In this document: positions 1 through 6,867 of the stretch, in pieces
Position numbering within the stretch: the stretch's first letter is position 1
Layout of the letters: each line of letters starts with the position of its first letter
Virus record (IMG/VR): IMGVR_UViG_2734482556_000012
DNA length: 33,447 bases
Strand: one strand, 5' to 3'
Source: a virus
Taxonomy: Duplodnaviria > Heunggongvirae > Uroviricota > Caudoviricetes
Translations under genes and position numbers: made by a program
Notes under the pieces: model-generated
Databases searched by the model: none
Told to the model about the DNA's origin: nothing
The model's input: the letters and a program-made list of their open reading frames with translations, nothing else

Positions 1-573
1 ATGTTTTGCGAAGAAAAAGTAGCTCAAATGGCTGCATACCTACTTCTTAAGCGAGGTGGGCGCATGGCATATCTGAAATTGATGAAGCTGCTCTATCTGT
101 CTAACCGCAAGTCGATTTTGAAGCATGGCAGGATGATCGGCGAAGATAGCCTTTACTCTATGAAATTTGGTCCAGTCATGTCGAATACGCTGAACTTGAT
201 TCGTGGTAAGGCTGAAGGCATTGGTGACTACTGGTACAACTTGATAGAGACGAACGGGCATGATGTGTTGTTGCGTTCAGATCCGAGGGAAATGGATGCA
301 GACGAGGTCTTTGATGAGTTGAGCCGTGCAGATATCCGGATTTTAGATGAAATCTATTCTCTGTATGGGCATATGAACCGATTTGATCTCGCAAACATGA
401 CGCATTTAGAAAGCGTTTGTCCAGAGTGGCACAATCCTGGCAATTCTCGTAAGCCTATAGACCTGAAAGAAATGCTGATCAGTGAGGGTAAAAGCGAGGA
501 TGAGGCTAATCGTATAATTGGCAAAATGGAAGAATCTCAGAAACTTAAGGAATTTTCTTTGCAATTATCATGA
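1..573 (+). CDS. Panacea (DUF4065) domain protein, SocA/PanA-like putative antitoxin; 5' end may lie outside the window
   Basis: 190-aa ORF; blocks KLMKLLYLS...FGPV and YSLYG...MTHLESVCPEW fit the DUF4065/Panacea pattern; stop overlaps next start (ATGA at 570-573). Confidence 0.6.
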   Translation: MFCEEKVAQMAAYLLLKRGGRMAYLKLMKLLYLSNRKSILKHGRMIGEDSLYSMKFGPVMSNTLNLIRGKAEGIGDYWYNLIETNGHDVLLRSDPREMDADEVFDELSRADIRILDEIYSLYGHMNRFDLANMTHLESVCPEWHNPGNSRKPIDLKEMLISEGKSEDEANRIIGKMEESQKLKEFSLQLS

Positions 574-989
574 CGGATTATCAGCCATACAGGAAAGGAA
601 CTGTGCTTGCCCCAACTGGGCCATGCAATCATCTTCATGTGATTTGTAATGATCCTGTTTATTACCCCGTTAACGATTGTTATTGTGTTTTAGTTGTTAA
701 TATTTCTAGTATCAAGGATGGTGTCCCCCACGATCCGTCTTGCGTCTTGAATTCTGGTGATCATCGCTTTATCAAGCATCCAAGTTATGTTGTTTACGCT
801 GAAGCTATAATTTGGCGAGTGGATAACATGGTTAGAAAGCAGCGATCGGGTGAGATTTCTGTTCATGATGATATGCCAGAAGCTACATTCAATAGAATTC
901 TGGACGGTTTTGATATATCTGATGAAGTTACGCCAAAGAACCTTAAATTTAAAAATAAATATTGCGTATCATCTATTGATGATGAGTAA
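570..989 (+). CDS. hypothetical 139-aa protein, candidate toxin/effector partner of the Panacea protein
   Basis: ORF translationally coupled to the upstream gene; Cys/His-rich N-terminal third; no family recognised; AT-rich. Confidence 0.45.
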   Translation: MTDYQPYRKGTVLAPTGPCNHLHVICNDPVYYPVNDCYCVLVVNISSIKDGVPHDPSCVLNSGDHRFIKHPSYVVYAEAIIWRVDNMVRKQRSGEISVHDDMPEATFNRILDGFDISDEVTPKNLKFKNKYCVSSIDDE

Positions 990-1028
990 ACAACAGGAAT
1001 TTTTTCGGTATAGCTTCTGGAGTTTTCT

Positions 1029-1202
1029 ATGGAAGATCAAAAAGCAACCAAGCCACAGGTTAAGTTCGACACAATGAAAGCATTCGCAGGTATGGGGGCT
1101 GCTGTTGAAGTTCTGATGAAGGCTGTTCCTAATGCGTTCACTCACGCTACTGTCTCTGGTAAAGAGCAGCAGGGTAAGCTTCGTCGTCGCAAAGCAGCAT
1201 GA
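1029..1202 (+). CDS. small hypothetical protein (57 aa)
   Basis: ATG at 1029 preceded by GGAG (1017-1020); ends just before a strong terminator; below the 60-aa cutoff of the ORF track. Confidence 0.25.
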   Translation: MEDQKATKPQVKFDTMKAFAGMGAAVEVLMKAVPNAFTHATVSGKEQQGKLRRRKAA

Positions 1203-1220
1203 TCATAGCTGGTGCTTTTT

Positions 1221-1247
1221 GAAAACCCGCCTTCAGGCGGGTTTTTT
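1221..1247. terminator. bidirectional rho-independent terminator
   Basis: 8-bp GC-rich stem AACCCGCC/GGCGGGTT (1224-1231 with 1236-1243), loop TTCA, A-run upstream and T6 downstream; sits between convergent genes. Confidence 0.6.
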
Positions 1248-1249
1248 CT

Positions 1250-1531
1250 TTAGTGATGTTCTTTGCCCTTCTGTTTGACTGTTCTGACCTGTTCCCACTC
1301 GATACGTCCTTCTTCTCGCCTTTTGTCTATGTATTCCGCAAGATCCTGAATATTGATGCAACGTTTTGCTTTTTGTGATGTGCCGATGCGATATGTTGGA
1401 ACGGGCAACTTACAAGCGTTTGCTTTTGCTTCTGCCGTGGCTGGACTCATACCAAAGTACTTTTGGCTAATTGCTGAGAGTTCAATGTTTGGGGTATTGA
1501 ATTCAGCCATCAGTAAAAACAAGGTGTTCAT
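1250..1531 (-). CDS. excisionase-like small DNA-binding protein (PrtN/AlpA-like)
   Basis: ATG at 1531 with GGAG 6 nt upstream; terminal position in the early-left operon as for lambda xis; family assignment by pattern only. Confidence 0.35.
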   Translation of the reverse strand: MNTLFLLMAEFNTPNIELSAISQKYFGMSPATAEAKANACKLPVPTYRIGTSQKAKRCINIQDLAEYIDKRREEGRIEWEQVRTVKQKGKEHH

Positions 1532-1567
1532 AATTTTCTCCATCAAAACCGGCTGCACCCGGGAAAA

Positions 1568-2140
1568 TCATAATTCTGTGCTGGTGGCAGGAATTAATTT
1601 CTGCCAGATAGCGGAAACATATTTTGCCTGATGACGGGCATCAGCTATGGCGTTGTGCCGTTCGCCATCGAAAGGCATGTCCATTTTGGGGTCGAATCCG
1701 ATGGAACGCCCAAGTGTAACGATCGTGCGTACATCGTGGTCATTCCAGTACGCCCACGGGCAGATTTGTCCTGCTCGCTCATAAGCTCCACGTAAAATTA
1801 CGTTGTCGAAGGTGGCTCCGTTACCCCAGACTTTTAAATATTTCGTATTGTCTGCGTGCCGGTTAATGAAATGGTTTAGTTCTGAGAGAGCATCGCTGAT
1901 CGACAAAGTATCATCAATACAGATTGCAGCTCGCGCTTCAGGGCTTTGTTTCAACCACCACAGGATGGTATCGCCGTCAGGTGTAGCTCCTTGCTTCATA
2001 GCACTGTCTAGGCTGACAACCGCATAGAATTCTTGTCCGATGTCTCCGGTTTCTGGAGTGAAGAACACCGCGCCAATGGAAACGATCGGTGCATCCTTAT
2101 TTTTCCCCATCGTCTCAAGGTCGATCATTAAGTTGTTCAT
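1568..2140 (-). CDS. DnaQ-like 3'-5' exonuclease (DEDDh)
   Basis: Exo motifs MIDLET, WGNGATFD and HNAIADARHQAKY; ATG overlaps upstream stop (ATGA). Confidence 0.7.
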   Translation of the reverse strand: MNNLMIDLETMGKNKDAPIVSIGAVFFTPETGDIGQEFYAVVSLDSAMKQGATPDGDTILWWLKQSPEARAAICIDDTLSISDALSELNHFINRHADNTKYLKVWGNGATFDNVILRGAYERAGQICPWAYWNDHDVRTIVTLGRSIGFDPKMDMPFDGERHNAIADARHQAKYVSAIWQKLIPATSTEL

Positions 2141-2658
2141 CACTTCACCTCCTGCGGCGGTTCTGGTAGAGGCATCCAATTGATTACATCGCATTTAGGG
2201 ATGCTGATATCATCACCAAGCCACCCTTGACCTTCAGACCAGCATTGCACGTAATACCCGTATTCTGTGTTCACTACGCACCACTGCGCGTCGTTCGGCA
2301 TTCGATCACTACAGCTTATCCAACTATCCGGAGTTCCCGGATAGTTGCCATTTACATCGAAGTTTGGCTCTGCGTCCTGAACCAGGAGGATGTAACCATT
2401 CTTGGCAGTATCAAGTTCTAACGCCTCGGTGACGGTGCCGAAATAGCGATTACCTAAATCAGCATCACAAGTGCTTACATCAATGGAAACCTCCATGCCT
2501 TCGATTAATTCTGGCAAGTTGTAAGTTTGGCTTACAGGTTCTGCTCCCAGCGATGCCAGTGCAATCCGTGCCAGTTCCATTTGTTCGCCACGGGTAAGCC
2601 CGTTATCAAGCGGATTTTTAATGAATAATTCGATACGTTCTTTGGTAATAGTGGTCAT
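2140..2658 (-). CDS. DUF551 domain protein
   Basis: C-terminal Trp-rich block WISCSDRMP...WCVV...INWMPLPEPP typical of DUF551; AGGTG RBS upstream of ATG 2658. Confidence 0.5.
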   Translation of the reverse strand: MTTITKERIELFIKNPLDNGLTRGEQMELARIALASLGAEPVSQTYNLPELIEGMEVSIDVSTCDADLGNRYFGTVTEALELDTAKNGYILLVQDAEPNFDVNGNYPGTPDSWISCSDRMPNDAQWCVVNTEYGYYVQCWSEGQGWLGDDISIPKCDVINWMPLPEPPQEVK

Positions 2659-2660
2659 AG

Positions 2661-2852
2661 CTATTTCACCTTAATCTCAACATTTCGCAGCTTTAGCTCT
2701 ACTGGCAGGTCTGACTTTCCTGTTAATGCTAATGCGAGATTTTCTGGGGTAATGAGAGCAGTTATTGCTTTCCCCATTGCCAGACGAATAATTATTCGTA
2801 TTTCGCGATCGTCACATGCTCCTGGTCGAACAATTGATATCTGTCCGTTCAT
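2661..2852 (-). CDS. hypothetical small protein (63 aa)
   Basis: ATG 2852 one nt after the upstream stop, with AAGGAAAG upstream; start chosen over the longer track ORF. Confidence 0.35.
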   Translation of the reverse strand: MNGQISIVRPGACDDREIRIIIRLAMGKAITALITPENLALALTGKSDLPVELKLRNVEIKVK

Positions 2853-2853
2853 C

Positions 2854-3576
2854 TCACTTTCCTTTGATGCGAATGCCAGCGGCACGGGAATCATTCCATC
2901 GCTTTACTTCTTCACGAATTACGTCAATGCATTCTTTCGAATCCATTAGGTAATCTTCATCAAAAAGCCTTTCCTGTTCGTTTTCTATCGCAACAATGAT
3001 TGCTTCAACTAACTTTTGTGCCTGAGAACCACTTTCTAACTCTGCAATGCGCTTCTCTGCGGCTTCCAGCTTCTCGCGCATATCGTCAACGTACTCGACC
3101 AGAGATCCGCCAGCAGGAATTTCGCACTCCTCGACCAGTTGGAAGTAGATATCAGCTGCGGCCCGTGTGTTGCTATGCCTAGCGTCGCCCATCTCACCTT
3201 CACGAAGAGCATCGCGTTCGGCGGTAAGATTGGCTATTTTGCTGTCTTTGCCTTCAAGCTCAACGCGCAGCTTCCCTACCGTTAGCGCAATATCCTCGTT
3301 CTCCTGGTCACGGCGTTTGATGTATTGCTGGTTTCTTTCCCGTTCATCCAGCAGCGCCTGCACTACTTCAGGGTTGAAAGCTGCGATATAACGAGCGTTG
3401 TTCTCTGCGTTGTTCTGTCCATCAAAGCCGGTCCATTTGATAACGTCTTCACATCGTTTATCACCAGGTGTATGCACCGCATATGTACCAGTACCAGACG
3501 AAATAAATGCGACCCATTCACCCTGTGTTGCCAGTTGCGCCGCTTTACGCAGTGCCTGATAGTCAATCTTGCTCAC
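2854..3576 (-). CDS. Ead/Ea22-like coiled-coil protein
   Basis: Long heptad-rich acidic region; GTG start 3576 preceded by AAGGAGG and overlapping upstream stop (GTGA). Confidence 0.45.
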   Translation of the reverse strand: MSKIDYQALRKAAQLATQGEWVAFISSGTGTYAVHTPGDKRCEDVIKWTGFDGQNNAENNARYIAAFNPEVVQALLDERERNQQYIKRRDQENEDIALTVGKLRVELEGKDSKIANLTAERDALREGEMGDARHSNTRAAADIYFQLVEECEIPAGGSLVEYVDDMREKLEAAEKRIAELESGSQAQKLVEAIIVAIENEQERLFDEDYLMDSKECIDVIREEVKRWNDSRAAGIRIKGK

Positions 3577-3812
3577 TGGTTGCCTCCTTTGCGGATCTGC
3601 GCTGCGATGCACGAAAAAAAAGACTCCCGCGTATGACTGTTAAGAGCTGGCGCGAACGCTGCGTTAAGAACGGCAGCATCACAGCCGTCATCGATATAGA
3701 GCGCAATTTTTTTCTCCAGGCGTGCTTTGGCTTCCTGCAACTGCATACCCCGGCACGCACGTGGGATATACTCAGCAATTTGAGCGATAGATTTTTCGTT
3801 CTGTTTAAACAT
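3573..3812 (-). CDS. hypothetical protein (79 aa)
   Basis: ORF with GAGGTG RBS; start overlaps stop of the upstream gene. Confidence 0.4.
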   Translation of the reverse strand: MFKQNEKSIAQIAEYIPRACRGMQLQEAKARLEKKIALYIDDGCDAAVLNAAFAPALNSHTRESFFSCIAAQIRKGGNQ

Positions 3813-4008
3813 GCTTCACCTCGATCGGCTTGATGGTATCGATCAGCAGTCGGCGGCGAGTATTTTCTGCAAAGTGGCGGCGTCCGGTTTCTTTGTGGTA
3901 AAACTCGTTTTTTCCGACGACCCACATCCGCTTTGTCTGGTGCAGTTTTTTTACCTGCGGACCGTCTCGGGTGATAACAATTCCTGTATGAGTTTTTATC
4001 ACGCTCAT
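3805..4008 (-). CDS. hypothetical protein (67 aa)
   Basis: ORF with GGAG RBS 8 nt upstream; ATGA overlap with the upstream gene. Confidence 0.4.
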   Translation of the reverse strand: MSVIKTHTGIVITRDGPQVKKLHQTKRMWVVGKNEFYHKETGRRHFAENTRRRLLIDTIKPIEVKHV

Positions 4009-4367
4009 TTCTTATTCTCCGGTGCTTTTGGCATTACTGCCCAGTGAGTGATATTGACGTTTTCAAGGTCCCCGACCTGAAATGTCCACTGCCATTCTCC
4101 GGTTTCTTTTTGTCCCCAGGTGTACCAGAGGGAACGCCAGCCAATCAGCCAGCCTTCTCCGTTAGCATCAAATAACAGAACACTTTCATTTGCTGGCGGC
4201 AGTTCAGCTGACACTGGTATTATTTTGTTTTCCAGTGCCGCACATTTAGCTTCAAGCGCGTCGAATTTACGTACCAGGTACTCGGCATTTGTTTCGTTCA
4301 CTTTCAGATCTCGCGGTACACATTTTCCGCGAAGAAACCCTTCCATTTCGAAAACATTCATGCGCAT
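4005..4367 (-). CDS. DUF551-like protein (YfdS-like)
   Basis: C-terminal GEGWLIGW...THWAVMPKAPE Trp motif; 120 aa; overlaps the HD gene stop. Confidence 0.45.
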   Translation of the reverse strand: MRMNVFEMEGFLRGKCVPRDLKVNETNAEYLVRKFDALEAKCAALENKIIPVSAELPPANESVLLFDANGEGWLIGWRSLWYTWGQKETGEWQWTFQVGDLENVNITHWAVMPKAPENKK

Positions 4368-4894
4368 TTGCGTAACTCCGATAACTCGTTAAAACGTTCC
4401 ATAAACATCCCGTAGGCATGGCCCGGTGCCAGTGGAATCACGTTGAACATCTCTGTTGCCGGGATGCCTTCCAGTACAGGCCAGAAAGAGCCATCATCAA
4501 GCCCGAGATCGCGGCGTTCGGTTGCCAGCATGATGAGATCGGCATATTTCACAGGTGTGCTCATAACCGGGGGTAACCCGTATTTCTCACGGATTACGGC
4601 ATCTATTTTTTCTTCCATCCGTTTATAGTCAGGAAGAAGGCGTTTCAGTGGAGCGGGGATGTCCTGGCAATATGCTTCTGTTGCATCATGCATTAACGCT
4701 TCAAAAGCAAATTCCTGCGGTACCAGCTGGCTGCAAAGCACCGCATGCTGGGCGACACTGTAGAAGTGTGAAAGATGTCCTGCAAAGCGACAGATATTTG
4801 AAAGGGAAACAGCGATATCGTTAATAACGATGTCATCTTTATTTATCTTGTCATAATAAAAATGCTTCCCGGAAAAAGTTTTAATAAATGACAT
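4358..4894 (-). CDS. HD-domain phosphohydrolase (YfdR-like 5'-deoxynucleotidase)
   Basis: H...HD metal motif (SVAQHAV...ALMHDATEAY); ATG 4894 with GGAG 6 nt upstream; 178 aa. Confidence 0.6.
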   Translation of the reverse strand: MSFIKTFSGKHFYYDKINKDDIVINDIAVSLSNICRFAGHLSHFYSVAQHAVLCSQLVPQEFAFEALMHDATEAYCQDIPAPLKRLLPDYKRMEEKIDAVIREKYGLPPVMSTPVKYADLIMLATERRDLGLDDGSFWPVLEGIPATEMFNVIPLAPGHAYGMFMERFNELSELRKCA

Positions 4895-5021
4895 TTTGTT
4901 CTCCACGTATATGCGCTGCACCGCGCTGAATTCTGGTAAAAGGAAGCCCTCACCATCCGGTGATTATTGAGTTAATTACGTTTCCATAAATGCCCCCGCA
5001 GGGGCATTTGCAGTAATGAAA

Positions 5022-5846
5022 TCAGGCGGTGAAAGTACCAATAAAGGTTTCTACTTTGCTGTCTTTGAATTTCTCAACAAGCAGATCACGAAATTCGTTA
5101 GCCATTTCTTCCTGCACCGCTTCCAGCTGAATAATGCGCAGAACCAGTACAGGACGATCGCCAGTGATAATGCTGAGGCGTAATTTAAATGGACGTTCTT
5201 CCAGACCTTCAAACGGAACGCATTTAAATTCAAATGCCACTGGCATAATATCTTTGGTCTTCGCTTCGACAGACTCCATCAGGGAGCGTTTGCCGCTGAA
5301 GTCATTATCTTCAAAATCAGCGGTCTGGTTTGCTTCAATCGTGATTTTACGGACAGCCGCAGCCGCTTTTGTTGCCTGAATAGCGTCACCATTAGCATCA
5401 AAGCCTACAAGGTAGTCGGCCCAGTCTTCAATCCATTCTGCCAGTGACTTCTGGGAGTTACGCTCGCCGTTAACAGACAACAGAGCAGAGAACGGTGCTG
5501 TCTTTTTCAGTTTGAGAGTGGCGGTGTTATCTGCGTGACCTGGTTCATCAATAGTACCCAGGTTAAGCACACTGACGGCACGCATATTATCAGCATCGAT
5601 AAAGCAGCGGGTGCCTTCATCTGCAAGATCTTTAGAATAACGGGTAAAGTCATCGATGCTGGCAGTGGAAAGCGCACCACGGAAACGGAAGCGATTTAAA
5701 TTAAATTTTTCCAGATCATGAATGCGGAAGTTCTCAGGCAATGCCACAGCATCGGCACCAATCTTACTGATAATTTCATTAACACCCTGAGCAGAAATAA
5801 GGGCATGGATTTGATTAATTGCGGTTGCGTCTAAGTTCTGAGACAT
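5022..5846 (-). CDS. YfdQ-like (DUF2303) protein
   Basis: 274-aa ORF with GAGGA RBS; size and neighbourhood match the CPS-53-type yfdP-Q-R-S block (recalled, not searched). Confidence 0.45.
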
Positions 5847-5911
5847 AATAAGTCCTCACTATATTAAGATATTCAGTGATGAGATAAATAATCAGTTAAT
5901 TAAGAACGATA

Positions 5912-6274
5912 TTAATGACCTGCTGCGCGGAGTTTTCCGTCAGGCTCACCGGCAAGAGTCAGTAATTGTCCCTGGTCTTCCTGCAGAATAGTCAGGCGAC
6001 CACCGCGATTGACATACATCGGCGTTTCGGTGGTGTCTTCTTCGGAAATTTTCCCGCGGTTAGTCGGGCGAACATATGAGAGTTTGTGTTTGATTTTCAC
6101 ACGGTTCTCATCAAACGGTTCGATTTCCAGGTTGAGCGAGACCTTACCTTTGGTTTTCGTGTTCATCACACCGGAAGCGACTTCACTGAGAACTGCGCCG
6201 ATTTTGGTTTCAAATACGCCGCCGTCCAGCTCCCCGATAAATGCCTGCACATCAGTACTGCGTTCGCTAGCCAT
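5912..6274 (-). CDS. hypothetical protein (YfdP-like, 120 aa)
   Basis: ATG 6274 with GAGGAG upstream chosen over the longer track ORF; first gene of the leftward operon. Confidence 0.4.
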   Translation of the reverse strand: MASERSTDVQAFIGELDGGVFETKIGAVLSEVASGVMNTKTKGKVSLNLEIEPFDENRVKIKHKLSYVRPTNRGKISEEDTTETPMYVNRGGRLTILQEDQGQLLTLAGEPDGKLRAAGH

Positions 6275-6321
6275 TTGCTGCTCCTCATCATATCGACCCT
6301 GCAAGGTCGGTTGGTTTCTCC

Positions 6322-6409
6322 ACAAAACAGAGAAGAACACCTGCGGTGCAGCCGCCCGGATGGATTGGGTTATGAGCCCGTCGTCCGGTGATGCTCTTCT
6401 CTGTTTTGT
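6322..6409. repeat. 15-bp perfect inverted repeat (ACAAAACAGAGAAGA / TCTTCTCTGTTTTGT) enclosing a 58-bp GC-rich spacer with internal hairpins
   Basis: Arms at 6322-6336 and 6395-6409 are exact reverse complements; lies in the pL leader 48 nt upstream of the first early-left gene. Confidence 0.85.
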
Positions 6410-6867
6410 AAAAAGAGCGGTACCAGCCGGAAGCAAGTGTACAAACTGGTACCGCCAAAGCAGTGGCTGTTGTGGTGGGGTTGTCACTCAGGCGTATGGT
6501 CAACCTGACAATCCGGTGTCCTCAACGGGGAAAGAGTAACCCCGCCATACTTACCGCCGCGCCATTTCGCGGATTACCACAACGCTGAGAGCACTTAGCC
6601 AGTTACGGCACCACACTTTGTCGCGGTTCCATAAATGCCATCATCGTTGCACCCTGGTCTCTTCCCAGGCGTCAAACCGAATCGCCACGCTGGTTAGGCG
6701 TCTTATCAGCATCCTCATTGACTTGCACATTCCGGCTACCTGGTTTGTTTGCCCGAGCAAGGAGTGGATTGTCCCCTTTAACGTCCCCAGACCGCTAACG
6801 ACGCATGTGCCATACGCCGTGTTACAACCAAATTTTGTTTGAATCTTGCCTGCGGCATGTTTCTTTT

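Follow-up and report, generated by a model that had tools for sequence, protein, structure and literature searches.

The IMG/VR virus record IMGVR_UViG_2734482556_000012 is a stretch of 33,447 nucleotides, hereafter the window, which opens with a two-gene block (positions 1-989) of an Escherichia coli lambdoid prophage fragment. This block is most probably a type II PanA-PanT toxin-antitoxin (TA) pair that a lambdoid E. coli prophage of the dusA-integrating kind carries as cargo near its attL end. This judgment covers the whole explanation jointly, including the arrest and neutralization steps set out below. Panacea is the name given to the domain DUF4065 in a study that catalogued 88 clusters of partner toxins and validated nine new PanAT pairs (Kurata et al., 2022, PMC8832971). 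The two open reading frames (ORFs) of the pair and their junction are as follows.

1-573, plus strand: panA (ORF1), 190 amino acids (aa), a stand-alone Panacea (DUF4065) protein with a C-terminal helical tail at about residues 155-190
570-989, plus strand: panT (ORF2), a predicted toxin of 139 aa with a MazF/Kid/CcdB fold, assigned to PanT cluster T6 of Kurata et al.
570-573, plus strand: ATGA stop/start overlap (-4), with the ATG at 570-572 and the TGA at 571-573

The coupling of the downstream ORF through this ATGA, proposed in an earlier sequence-only reading of the region, is thus borne out. The pair would be transcribed from a promoter-like site of its own upstream of panA, and the transcript probably continues through a following gene of 57 codons to a terminator at 1221-1246. 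PanA would be made first, with panT translated by coupling via the overlap. PanA most likely neutralizes PanT by direct protein-protein binding, while free PanT most likely blocks translation and so halts growth; it is probably an endoribonuclease that cuts mRNA or tRNA.

Identity of the two genes

ORF1 matches the Pfam family PF13274 (SocA_Panacea) with 67.9 bits (E 1.8e-18; gathering threshold 25.7 bits) across residues 27-137 and 109 of the 113 model positions, in agreement with the Panacea assignment of the sequence-only reading. Its other matches are phrog_1281 and the RefSeq entry WP_000458583.1, a 'Panacea domain-containing protein'. It carries the GPV signature as G57-P58-V59 within KFGPVMSN; among 20 paired homologs the G and the P are invariant, and the V is at least 90% conserved. 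This motif is critical for neutralization by PanA (Kurata et al., 2022, PMC8832971). ORF1 has no N-terminal accessory domain. For a PanA of this type, the scheme of Ernits et al. (2023) would place the toxin contact either in the Panacea core or in the C-terminal helix. An AlphaFold model of PanA computed without an alignment had a pLDDT of 42 and was unusable. The sequence-only reading had worried that ORF1 might be the tail of a larger gene, a worry that can be set aside. In records that are 98-100% identical to the window, the same ATG, with a GAGG 8 nt upstream, is the first start after an in-frame stop, and int or zur lies upstream, so that ORF1 is full length.

The 5' end of panA has relatives of its own. 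Its first 102 nt are 84.6% identical in DNA to Klebsiella phage ST13-OXA48phi12.5 (MK714353.1, 31626-31727), the toxin of which is merely 42.5% identical in protein to ORF2, and two PHROG families match PanA from residue 1 to residues 27-39 only. As both the Klebsiella DNA match and the two PHROG matches are restricted to the start of the gene, they suggest that this segment is conserved or recombining.

The downstream gene leads to cluster T6 of Kurata et al. (2022, PMC8832971), which was annotated by HHpred as 'EndoA/PemK/MazF-family RNAses' and consists of antitoxin-first pairs with -4 or -1 overlaps. The cluster lists Pseudomonas moraviensis BS3668 (validated as 'TA'), Pantoea septica LMG 5345 (-4) and 'Yersiniaceae bacterium 2016Iso4' (-1), together with Proteus, Pluralibacter, Photorhabdus, Halomonas, Methyloprofundus and several Alphaproteobacteria. 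A BLASTP alignment of 120 aa (43% identity, E 6e-34) links ORF2 to SDU72800.1, a P. moraviensis protein of 132 aa encoded on a 6.09-Mb contig. A scan for the ORF2 family, limited to one genome per species, recovered the T6-listed P. septica LMG 5345, where PanA ends at 3004 and PanT starts at 3001 (-4), and the T6-listed strain 2016-Iso4 with a one-base (-1) overlap, as in the list of Kurata et al. The family search also recovered Halomonas meridiana/stevensii, Proteus, Pluralibacter and Methylococcaceae. For the P. moraviensis locus itself, a relative from the same 90% cluster, from Pseudomonas sp. B10, stands in. On the antitoxin side, the PanA of Pseudomonas phage Sirocco starts with MIFSEQKVAQ, the ten residues that Kurata et al. 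restored to PanA(Pse. mor.), and ORF1 starts with MFCEEKVAQ. On the strength of these sequence comparisons, ORF2 is assigned to PanT cluster T6, a family with one experimentally validated member.

That member, PanT(Pse. mor.), is toxic in E. coli, is rescued by PanA and co-purifies with it, and it specifically blocks the incorporation of 35S-Met, which identifies translation, and neither replication nor transcription, as the process affected (Kurata et al., 2022, PMC8832971). Since ORF2 is homologous to a P. moraviensis protein taken to be this validated toxin, the downstream gene is the toxin by homology, contrary to the earlier view that the toxic partner could not be decided from sequence. 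By the same homology, toxicity, complex formation and inhibition of translation would be expected of the E. coli pair. PanAT(Pse. mor.), from P. moraviensis LMG 24280/BS3668, resembles that pair in its antitoxin-first order with a -4/-1 overlap, in its antitoxin, a stand-alone Panacea protein of about 185-190 aa that begins similarly, and in its toxin of about 132-139 aa, 43% identical, with a MazF-like fold. It differs in being a lone chromosomal islet, whereas the E. coli pair lies on a lambdoid prophage beside the attachment site, and in its toxin, in which H23 and C26 of the E. coli protein are not conserved, as throughout the Pseudomonas branch. Moreover, the Pseudomonas pair has been assayed, whereas the E. 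coli pair is known here from sequence.

An assignment of ORF2 to cluster T1 of Kurata et al. (E. coli MOD1 and Salmonella phage Emek, 'mRNase', not toxic) was considered and rejected, because the T1 overlaps differ (-20, -62), because a tblastn search of a phage collection with PanT gave no Salmonella phage match, and because the strains of T6 fit. In a paper on the validation of Photorhabdus TA systems, consulted for a tested T6 homolog, the matches to 'PanA' refer to the software PanACoTA. The validated PanAT(Esc. col.) of E. coli STEC O31 also combines an E. coli PanA with an overlapping downstream toxin, but this toxin, from cluster T3, is a small peptide that spans the membrane and is not related to the MazF-fold toxin of T6.

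The Pfam family that ORF1 matches was founded on SocA of the type VI system SocAB of Caulobacter crescentus, which shares with PanAT the use of a Panacea antitoxin. SocA is a ClpXP adaptor and SocB an inhibitor of the replication clamp (as cited in Kurata et al., 2022, PMC8832971). A SocAB-like mode of action for the window pair, with the Panacea protein delivering the toxin to ClpXP for degradation and no sequestering, would be in line with the family name, and the two modes of neutralization need not exclude each other (Kurata et al., 2022, PMC8832971). It is nevertheless highly improbable: ORF1 scores 13.5 bits against the SocA equivalog NF047745 of NCBIfam, below its cut-off of 190, ORF2 is MazF-like, whereas SocB forms cluster T10 of Kurata et al., and the homologous P. 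moraviensis pair forms a stable complex.

Fold and conserved residues of the predicted toxin

The sequence-only reading had called for a profile search of both proteins. For ORF1 this search gave PF13274; for ORF2, in contrast, no Pfam, NCBIfam or PADLOC assignment was obtained, and the sole match was phrog_19071 (function not known). The AlphaFold2 (AF2) model of ORF2 (pLDDT 89.5, pTM 0.82) adopts the SH3-like barrel fold of MazF, Kid and CcdB, and the top 36 Foldseek matches of this model are all MazF, with probabilities of 0.94-1.0. The partner is thus not unrecognizable, as it had seemed, nor a candidate for a new kind of toxin, in view of this fold and of its T6 membership. Panacea-neutralized MazF-like toxins were already described and validated in 2022; the chemistry of the toxin and a possible role in defense could still be new.

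The family to which ORF2 belongs is large, and neither Pfam nor NCBIfam has a model for it. Homologs from 5.8 billion searched proteins fell into 62 clusters, were about 130-150 aa long and had no Pfam domain. Among 1.84 billion representatives of clusters at 50% identity, profile relatives number 2,724 at E<=1e-3 and 948 at E<=1e-10, and nearly all family members are 120-150 aa long. Across 103 diverse members, H21 is the sole invariant residue, and L22, V43, D55, C58, G63, H65, F67, S72, Y76, G113 and S117 are at least 90% conserved, so that the polar invariant or near-invariant set comprises H21, D55, C58, H65, S72, Y76 and S117. All the family-conserved residues are intact in the window copy. 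In the AF2 model they map to strand 2 and to the loop after strand 4, a region that would correspond topologically to the active-site region of MazF. In MazF, the catalytic pair is Arg29 and Thr52. In an hhalign alignment that is statistically insignificant, H21 falls opposite MazF H28, L22 opposite R29 and S46 opposite T52, with no conserved Arg at that place. The identification of a toxin family of this size without a Pfam model, with conserved residues that differ from those of MazF, is one reason why the E. coli pair matters.

A zinc-binding site of the form HxHxxC...C...H was suggested by the close homologs, in which H23 and C26 are invariant. It was rejected as a family feature because both residues are lost in the Pseudomonas members and in the 103-sequence alignment.

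In comparison with MazEF, Kid-Kis (PemIK) and CcdAB, the PanAT pair likewise consists of two genes with the antitoxin first, and translation arrest would be the expected outcome. Its toxin differs from theirs in that it has no detectable sequence similarity and no PemK match, in its conserved His/Asp/Cys/His residues in place of Arg/Thr and in two extra C-terminal helices. Its antitoxin is a Panacea domain and not a MazE/Kis/CcdA protein of the AbrB/SpoVT or RHH type.

A number of observations weigh against the explanation proposed here. No match to Pfam PemK (PF02452) was found, and none of 23 ORF2 family members hit any toxin Pfam at E<=1. Searches of the PDB with phmmer and hmmsearch, using the single sequence and the profiles A2 and A4, found no MazF, and hhalign comparisons with the sequences of E. 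coli MazF and Bacillus subtilis EndoA gave probabilities below 1%. The kinship of ORF2 with MazF, as judged from the model, is at the level of the fold only, and since the conserved H21, D55, C58 and H65 are not the Arg/Thr of MazF, the chemistry may differ; RNase activity of PanT is predicted from its fold only. The link to the assayed toxin also includes an assumption, namely that SDU72800.1 is the GenBank twin of WP_083201923.1, made from species, genome and length and not from the accession. In addition, 8 of the 25 PanT candidates tested by Kurata et al. (2022, PMC8832971) were not toxic in E. coli. Lastly, no paper was found on this E. coli module, and none of PanA, PanT and the 57-aa protein matched a PADLOC-DB 2.0 model at E<=1.

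The same residues raise the question of whether the MazF scaffold of PanT serves another chemistry or target than MazF-type mRNA cleavage, for instance through a His/His or Cys-His-Asp center directed at tRNA, rRNA or one of the proteins of the translation machinery. The near-invariance of H21, D55, C58, H65, S72, Y76 and S117 in the 103 members, as opposed to the Arg/Thr pair of MazF, and the failure of the searches above to find a PemK/MazF link in sequence speak for such a departure. It is rather unlikely, given that the P. moraviensis homolog specifically blocks translation and that the strands and loops holding the conserved residues match the MazF active-site region in topology, even if the residue alignment is insignificant.

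The annotation of the toxin varies among databases. RefSeq/PGAP starts the E. coli protein at an internal GTG (window position 603; 6603-6989 in L041, the APEC 102026 record), giving 128 aa instead of 139. This call drops residues 1-11, which form part of strand 1 and include positions conserved across the family (M1, P6, G10), and the start is probably wrong. The toxin ORF of Pseudomonas phage Sirocco (L043, 1486-1884) is unannotated and a small ORF on the opposite strand has been called instead, so that in at least one phage record the toxin gene has been missed altogether.

Pairing, mobility and possible roles

In 12 of 12 loci fetched by exact-protein look-up, the gene immediately upstream of the ORF2 homolog encodes a Panacea protein. 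The same holds for all 24 informative loci, from Gamma- to Alphaproteobacteria, among the 26 of the genome scan, the other two being a 277-bp contig and a locus that begins at a contig end. Pairing is thus near-obligate, and the survey of recurrence proposed by the sequence-only reading turned out in favor of a linked pair. One locus (L037) appeared to be an exception, an appearance caused by masked Ns. The -4 or -1 overlap geometry recurs in the homologous loci and in Dataset S1 of Kurata et al. The same pair was found in more than 30 distinct loci of Entero-, Vibrio-, Shewanella-, Pseudomonas-, Methylococc-, Sphingomonad- and other lineages, and the identity of a homologous PanA to the window protein tracks that of its PanT (Spearman 0.89, n=26), which argues that the pair travels and diverges as a unit.

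The cassette occupies a variety of positions. In the prophage of the window it lies between int/attP and xis. In Enterobacter prophages (L003-L006, 3432-4453), with proteins 73% identical, it separates the lambda-like tail gene K (Prok-JAB/NlpC_P60) from I/J, a second, unrelated moron site. It is also present in Shewanella integrative islands with AlpA and YfjJ-like genes, in a Vibrio phage that has a repressor gene and a GPA-type replication gene (Pfam Phage_GPA) next to it, in other E. coli elements, where it follows the gene for a giant MuF-polyvalent protein, in phages of Yersinia, Klebsiella and Pseudomonas, including the P2-like Sirocco (Peduoviridae), and as a lone Pseudomonas chromosomal islet after mutY-yggX. 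The two genes are a conserved cassette found on several kinds of mobile elements and behave like cargo acquired on its own at a lambdoid prophage end, in line with the moron proposed in the sequence-only reading.

In E. coli, the module was found in 208 of 5,426 complete genomes (about 4%), always on the chromosome, and it is full length in 206 of these carriers, at 95-100% identity. RefSeq labels the two genes 'Panacea domain-containing protein' and 'hypothetical protein', and a predicted function can now be given to both. The copy of E. coli 7_33_46A (NZ_CP074819.1, 5111034-5111743) matches window positions 1-710 only, with panA intact and panT truncated. In the Bathymodiolus platifrons symbiont (L040, 2420-3330), an intact PanA is followed by a degraded toxin remnant of 63 aa, which looks like an orphaned antitoxin.

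Such cases could mean that the E. coli copy is itself a remnant, inert or in decay, that is not toxic to its host and keeps PanA by linkage alone. The non-toxic PanT candidates of Kurata et al. would fit, as would the copy truncated at base 710 and the symbiont in which PanA is intact and PanT degraded. This is improbable, however, as both ORFs of the window are intact with every family-conserved residue present, nearly all E. coli carriers (206 of 208) have the full-length module at high identity, and pairing and co-variation have been kept across classes of Proteobacteria.

The 1.3-kb region that contains the pair recurs on the E. coli APEC 102026 chromosome at 100% identity and in two phages, Lys8385Vzw and SKA5, at 98%. 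The nearest gene upstream of panA is int, on the other strand, in the phages, or the host gene zur in the lysogen. Homology between phage and lysogen starts 262 bp upstream of the panA ATG, within the 5' end of the host gene dusA. This homology edge places the pair just within attL of a dusA-integrating lambdoid prophage, as its first block of genes. In APEC 102026, a truncated dusA' ORF (MPAESHTVYPAYRFSIAPMLD-RMYRC*; L041, 5686-5766) lies about 235-315 bp upstream of window position 1; it is on the same strand as panA and points at it, so that transcription from the dusA promoter of the host could extend into the module in a lysogen. In SKA5, the complementary dusA fragment is annotated beside int. 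Positions 1-989 have a GC content of 0.412, as compared with 0.502 for the window, and fall within the lowest 2.8% of 989-bp windows; the claim that the module is richer in AT than its surroundings therefore stands.

Downstream of the pair, the following features are found.

1029-1202, plus strand: 57-aa lambdoid backbone gene (phrog_2741, E 5.8e-35)
1221-1246, plus strand: intrinsic-terminator hairpin, between the plus-strand genes and the convergent minus-strand xis
1250-1558, minus strand: PrtN-family excisionase gene (xis), the first gene of the leftward early operon (PF11112, E 7.6e-23; phrog_1300, excisionase)

The sequence-only reading had made the 57-aa ORF part of the unit. The ORF does exist, follows the pair and is conserved, as a lambdoid gene with the RefSeq counterpart WP_165386319.1, lying between the cargo slot and the terminator and convergent with xis. 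Its membership of the unit did not hold. Phage mEp460 shares only window positions 1016-1300, that is the 57-aa gene, the terminator and xis, the GC content of the gene (0.483) is backbone-like, and its protein was seen in lambdoid loci of E. coli alone and in no other PanAT neighborhood. It was rejected as a third TA component on these grounds and assigned to the phage backbone, because mEp460 keeps it without the pair and it never accompanies PanAT elsewhere. In the panAT slot of mEp460, between attP/int and the 57-aa gene, lies gp23 (L042, 2284-2817), an unrelated gene of 177 aa without a Pfam match. This different gene in the same slot marks the site as a hot spot of cargo exchange.

The biological role of the pair is a matter of speculation and may lie in maintenance of the prophage, in abortive-infection defense of the lysogen with Panacea as the sensor of the trigger, or in both. 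A swappable slot at the prophage end, low GC and recurrence at other moron sites fit a gene that benefits the lysogen, by defense or by addiction.

Several TA systems defend bacteria against phages, a precedent for an abortive-infection or superinfection-exclusion module in which PanA would sense a phage and release or activate the MazF-fold toxin, so that the lysogen is killed or arrested before the invader replicates. This reading concerns the role and is compatible with the TA mechanism. The exchangeable slot with its different gene in mEp460, the recurrence of the cassette at other moron sites, islands or satellites and the low GC of the pair all agree with it, and Panacea has been hypothesized to be a sensor domain (Ernits et al., 2023). 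On the other hand, no PADLOC model matches either protein, no paper was found that reports defense by any PanAT pair, and the Pseudomonas pair is a lone chromosomal islet, 'NotPhage' in Kurata et al., so that a defense role is put forward tentatively. A more far-reaching version, rather unlikely, would make T6 PanT a MazF-fold effector with a non-MazF center (H21, D55, C58, H65) and an RNA or protein target of its own, Panacea a phage sensor, and the whole a widespread, uncatalogued abortive-infection system of lysogens.

Addiction is a role in which loss or excision of the prophage would stop PanA synthesis, and PanT, if longer-lived, would then arrest the cured cells, so that the element is retained. 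The presence of the pair on mobile or integrative elements beside integrases, its position directly adjoining the attachment site and the location of PanATs near recombination hotspots (discussed in Kurata et al., 2022, PMC8832971) are consistent with such a stabilizing function. As single-copy chromosomal TA systems often have no measurable stabilizing effect, however, this role is regarded as doubtful. Whichever role applies, the identification of a probable type II pair native to an E. coli prophage provides a natural-host setting for studies of toxin chemistry, of the Panacea 'sensor' hypothesis and of a possible role in defense.

Transcription signals and neighboring genes

A promoter-like sequence, TTGACC-17-TAAACT, is found 127-155 nt upstream of panA, inside the phage DNA. 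In phage Lys8385Vzw (L001), the region upstream of panA contains two short palindromes and is otherwise without repeats. A search of positions 1-1700 with Rfam for RNA elements, including a type III-like antitoxin RNA, gave sub-threshold matches on the terminator hairpin only.

The hairpin at 1221-1246 has, on the plus strand, a stem of 11 pairs (6 G-C) and a 4-nt loop followed by a T-run. It is preceded by an A-run, which gives the minus strand a tail of only TTTTCAAAA that failed the terminator scan. The earlier description of a strong bidirectional terminator thus applies in its plus-strand part; because the minus-strand tail did not pass the scan, bidirectional termination is plausible but weaker than had been claimed.

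All the genes at 1250-6487, which adjoin the pair unit, lie on the minus strand, as expected from the earlier statement that the module is opposite to the adjacent early-left operon. The homolog of 1250-1558 in mEp460 is annotated as an excisionase. The next early-left genes, at 1568-2658 on the minus strand, include those for a protein with an Rv2179c-like 3'-5' exoribonuclease domain (Pfam E 5e-75) and for a DUF551 protein. In some phage records, their homologs are labeled 'exodeoxyribonuclease VIII' or 'valyl-tRNA synthetase', which look like mis-annotations.

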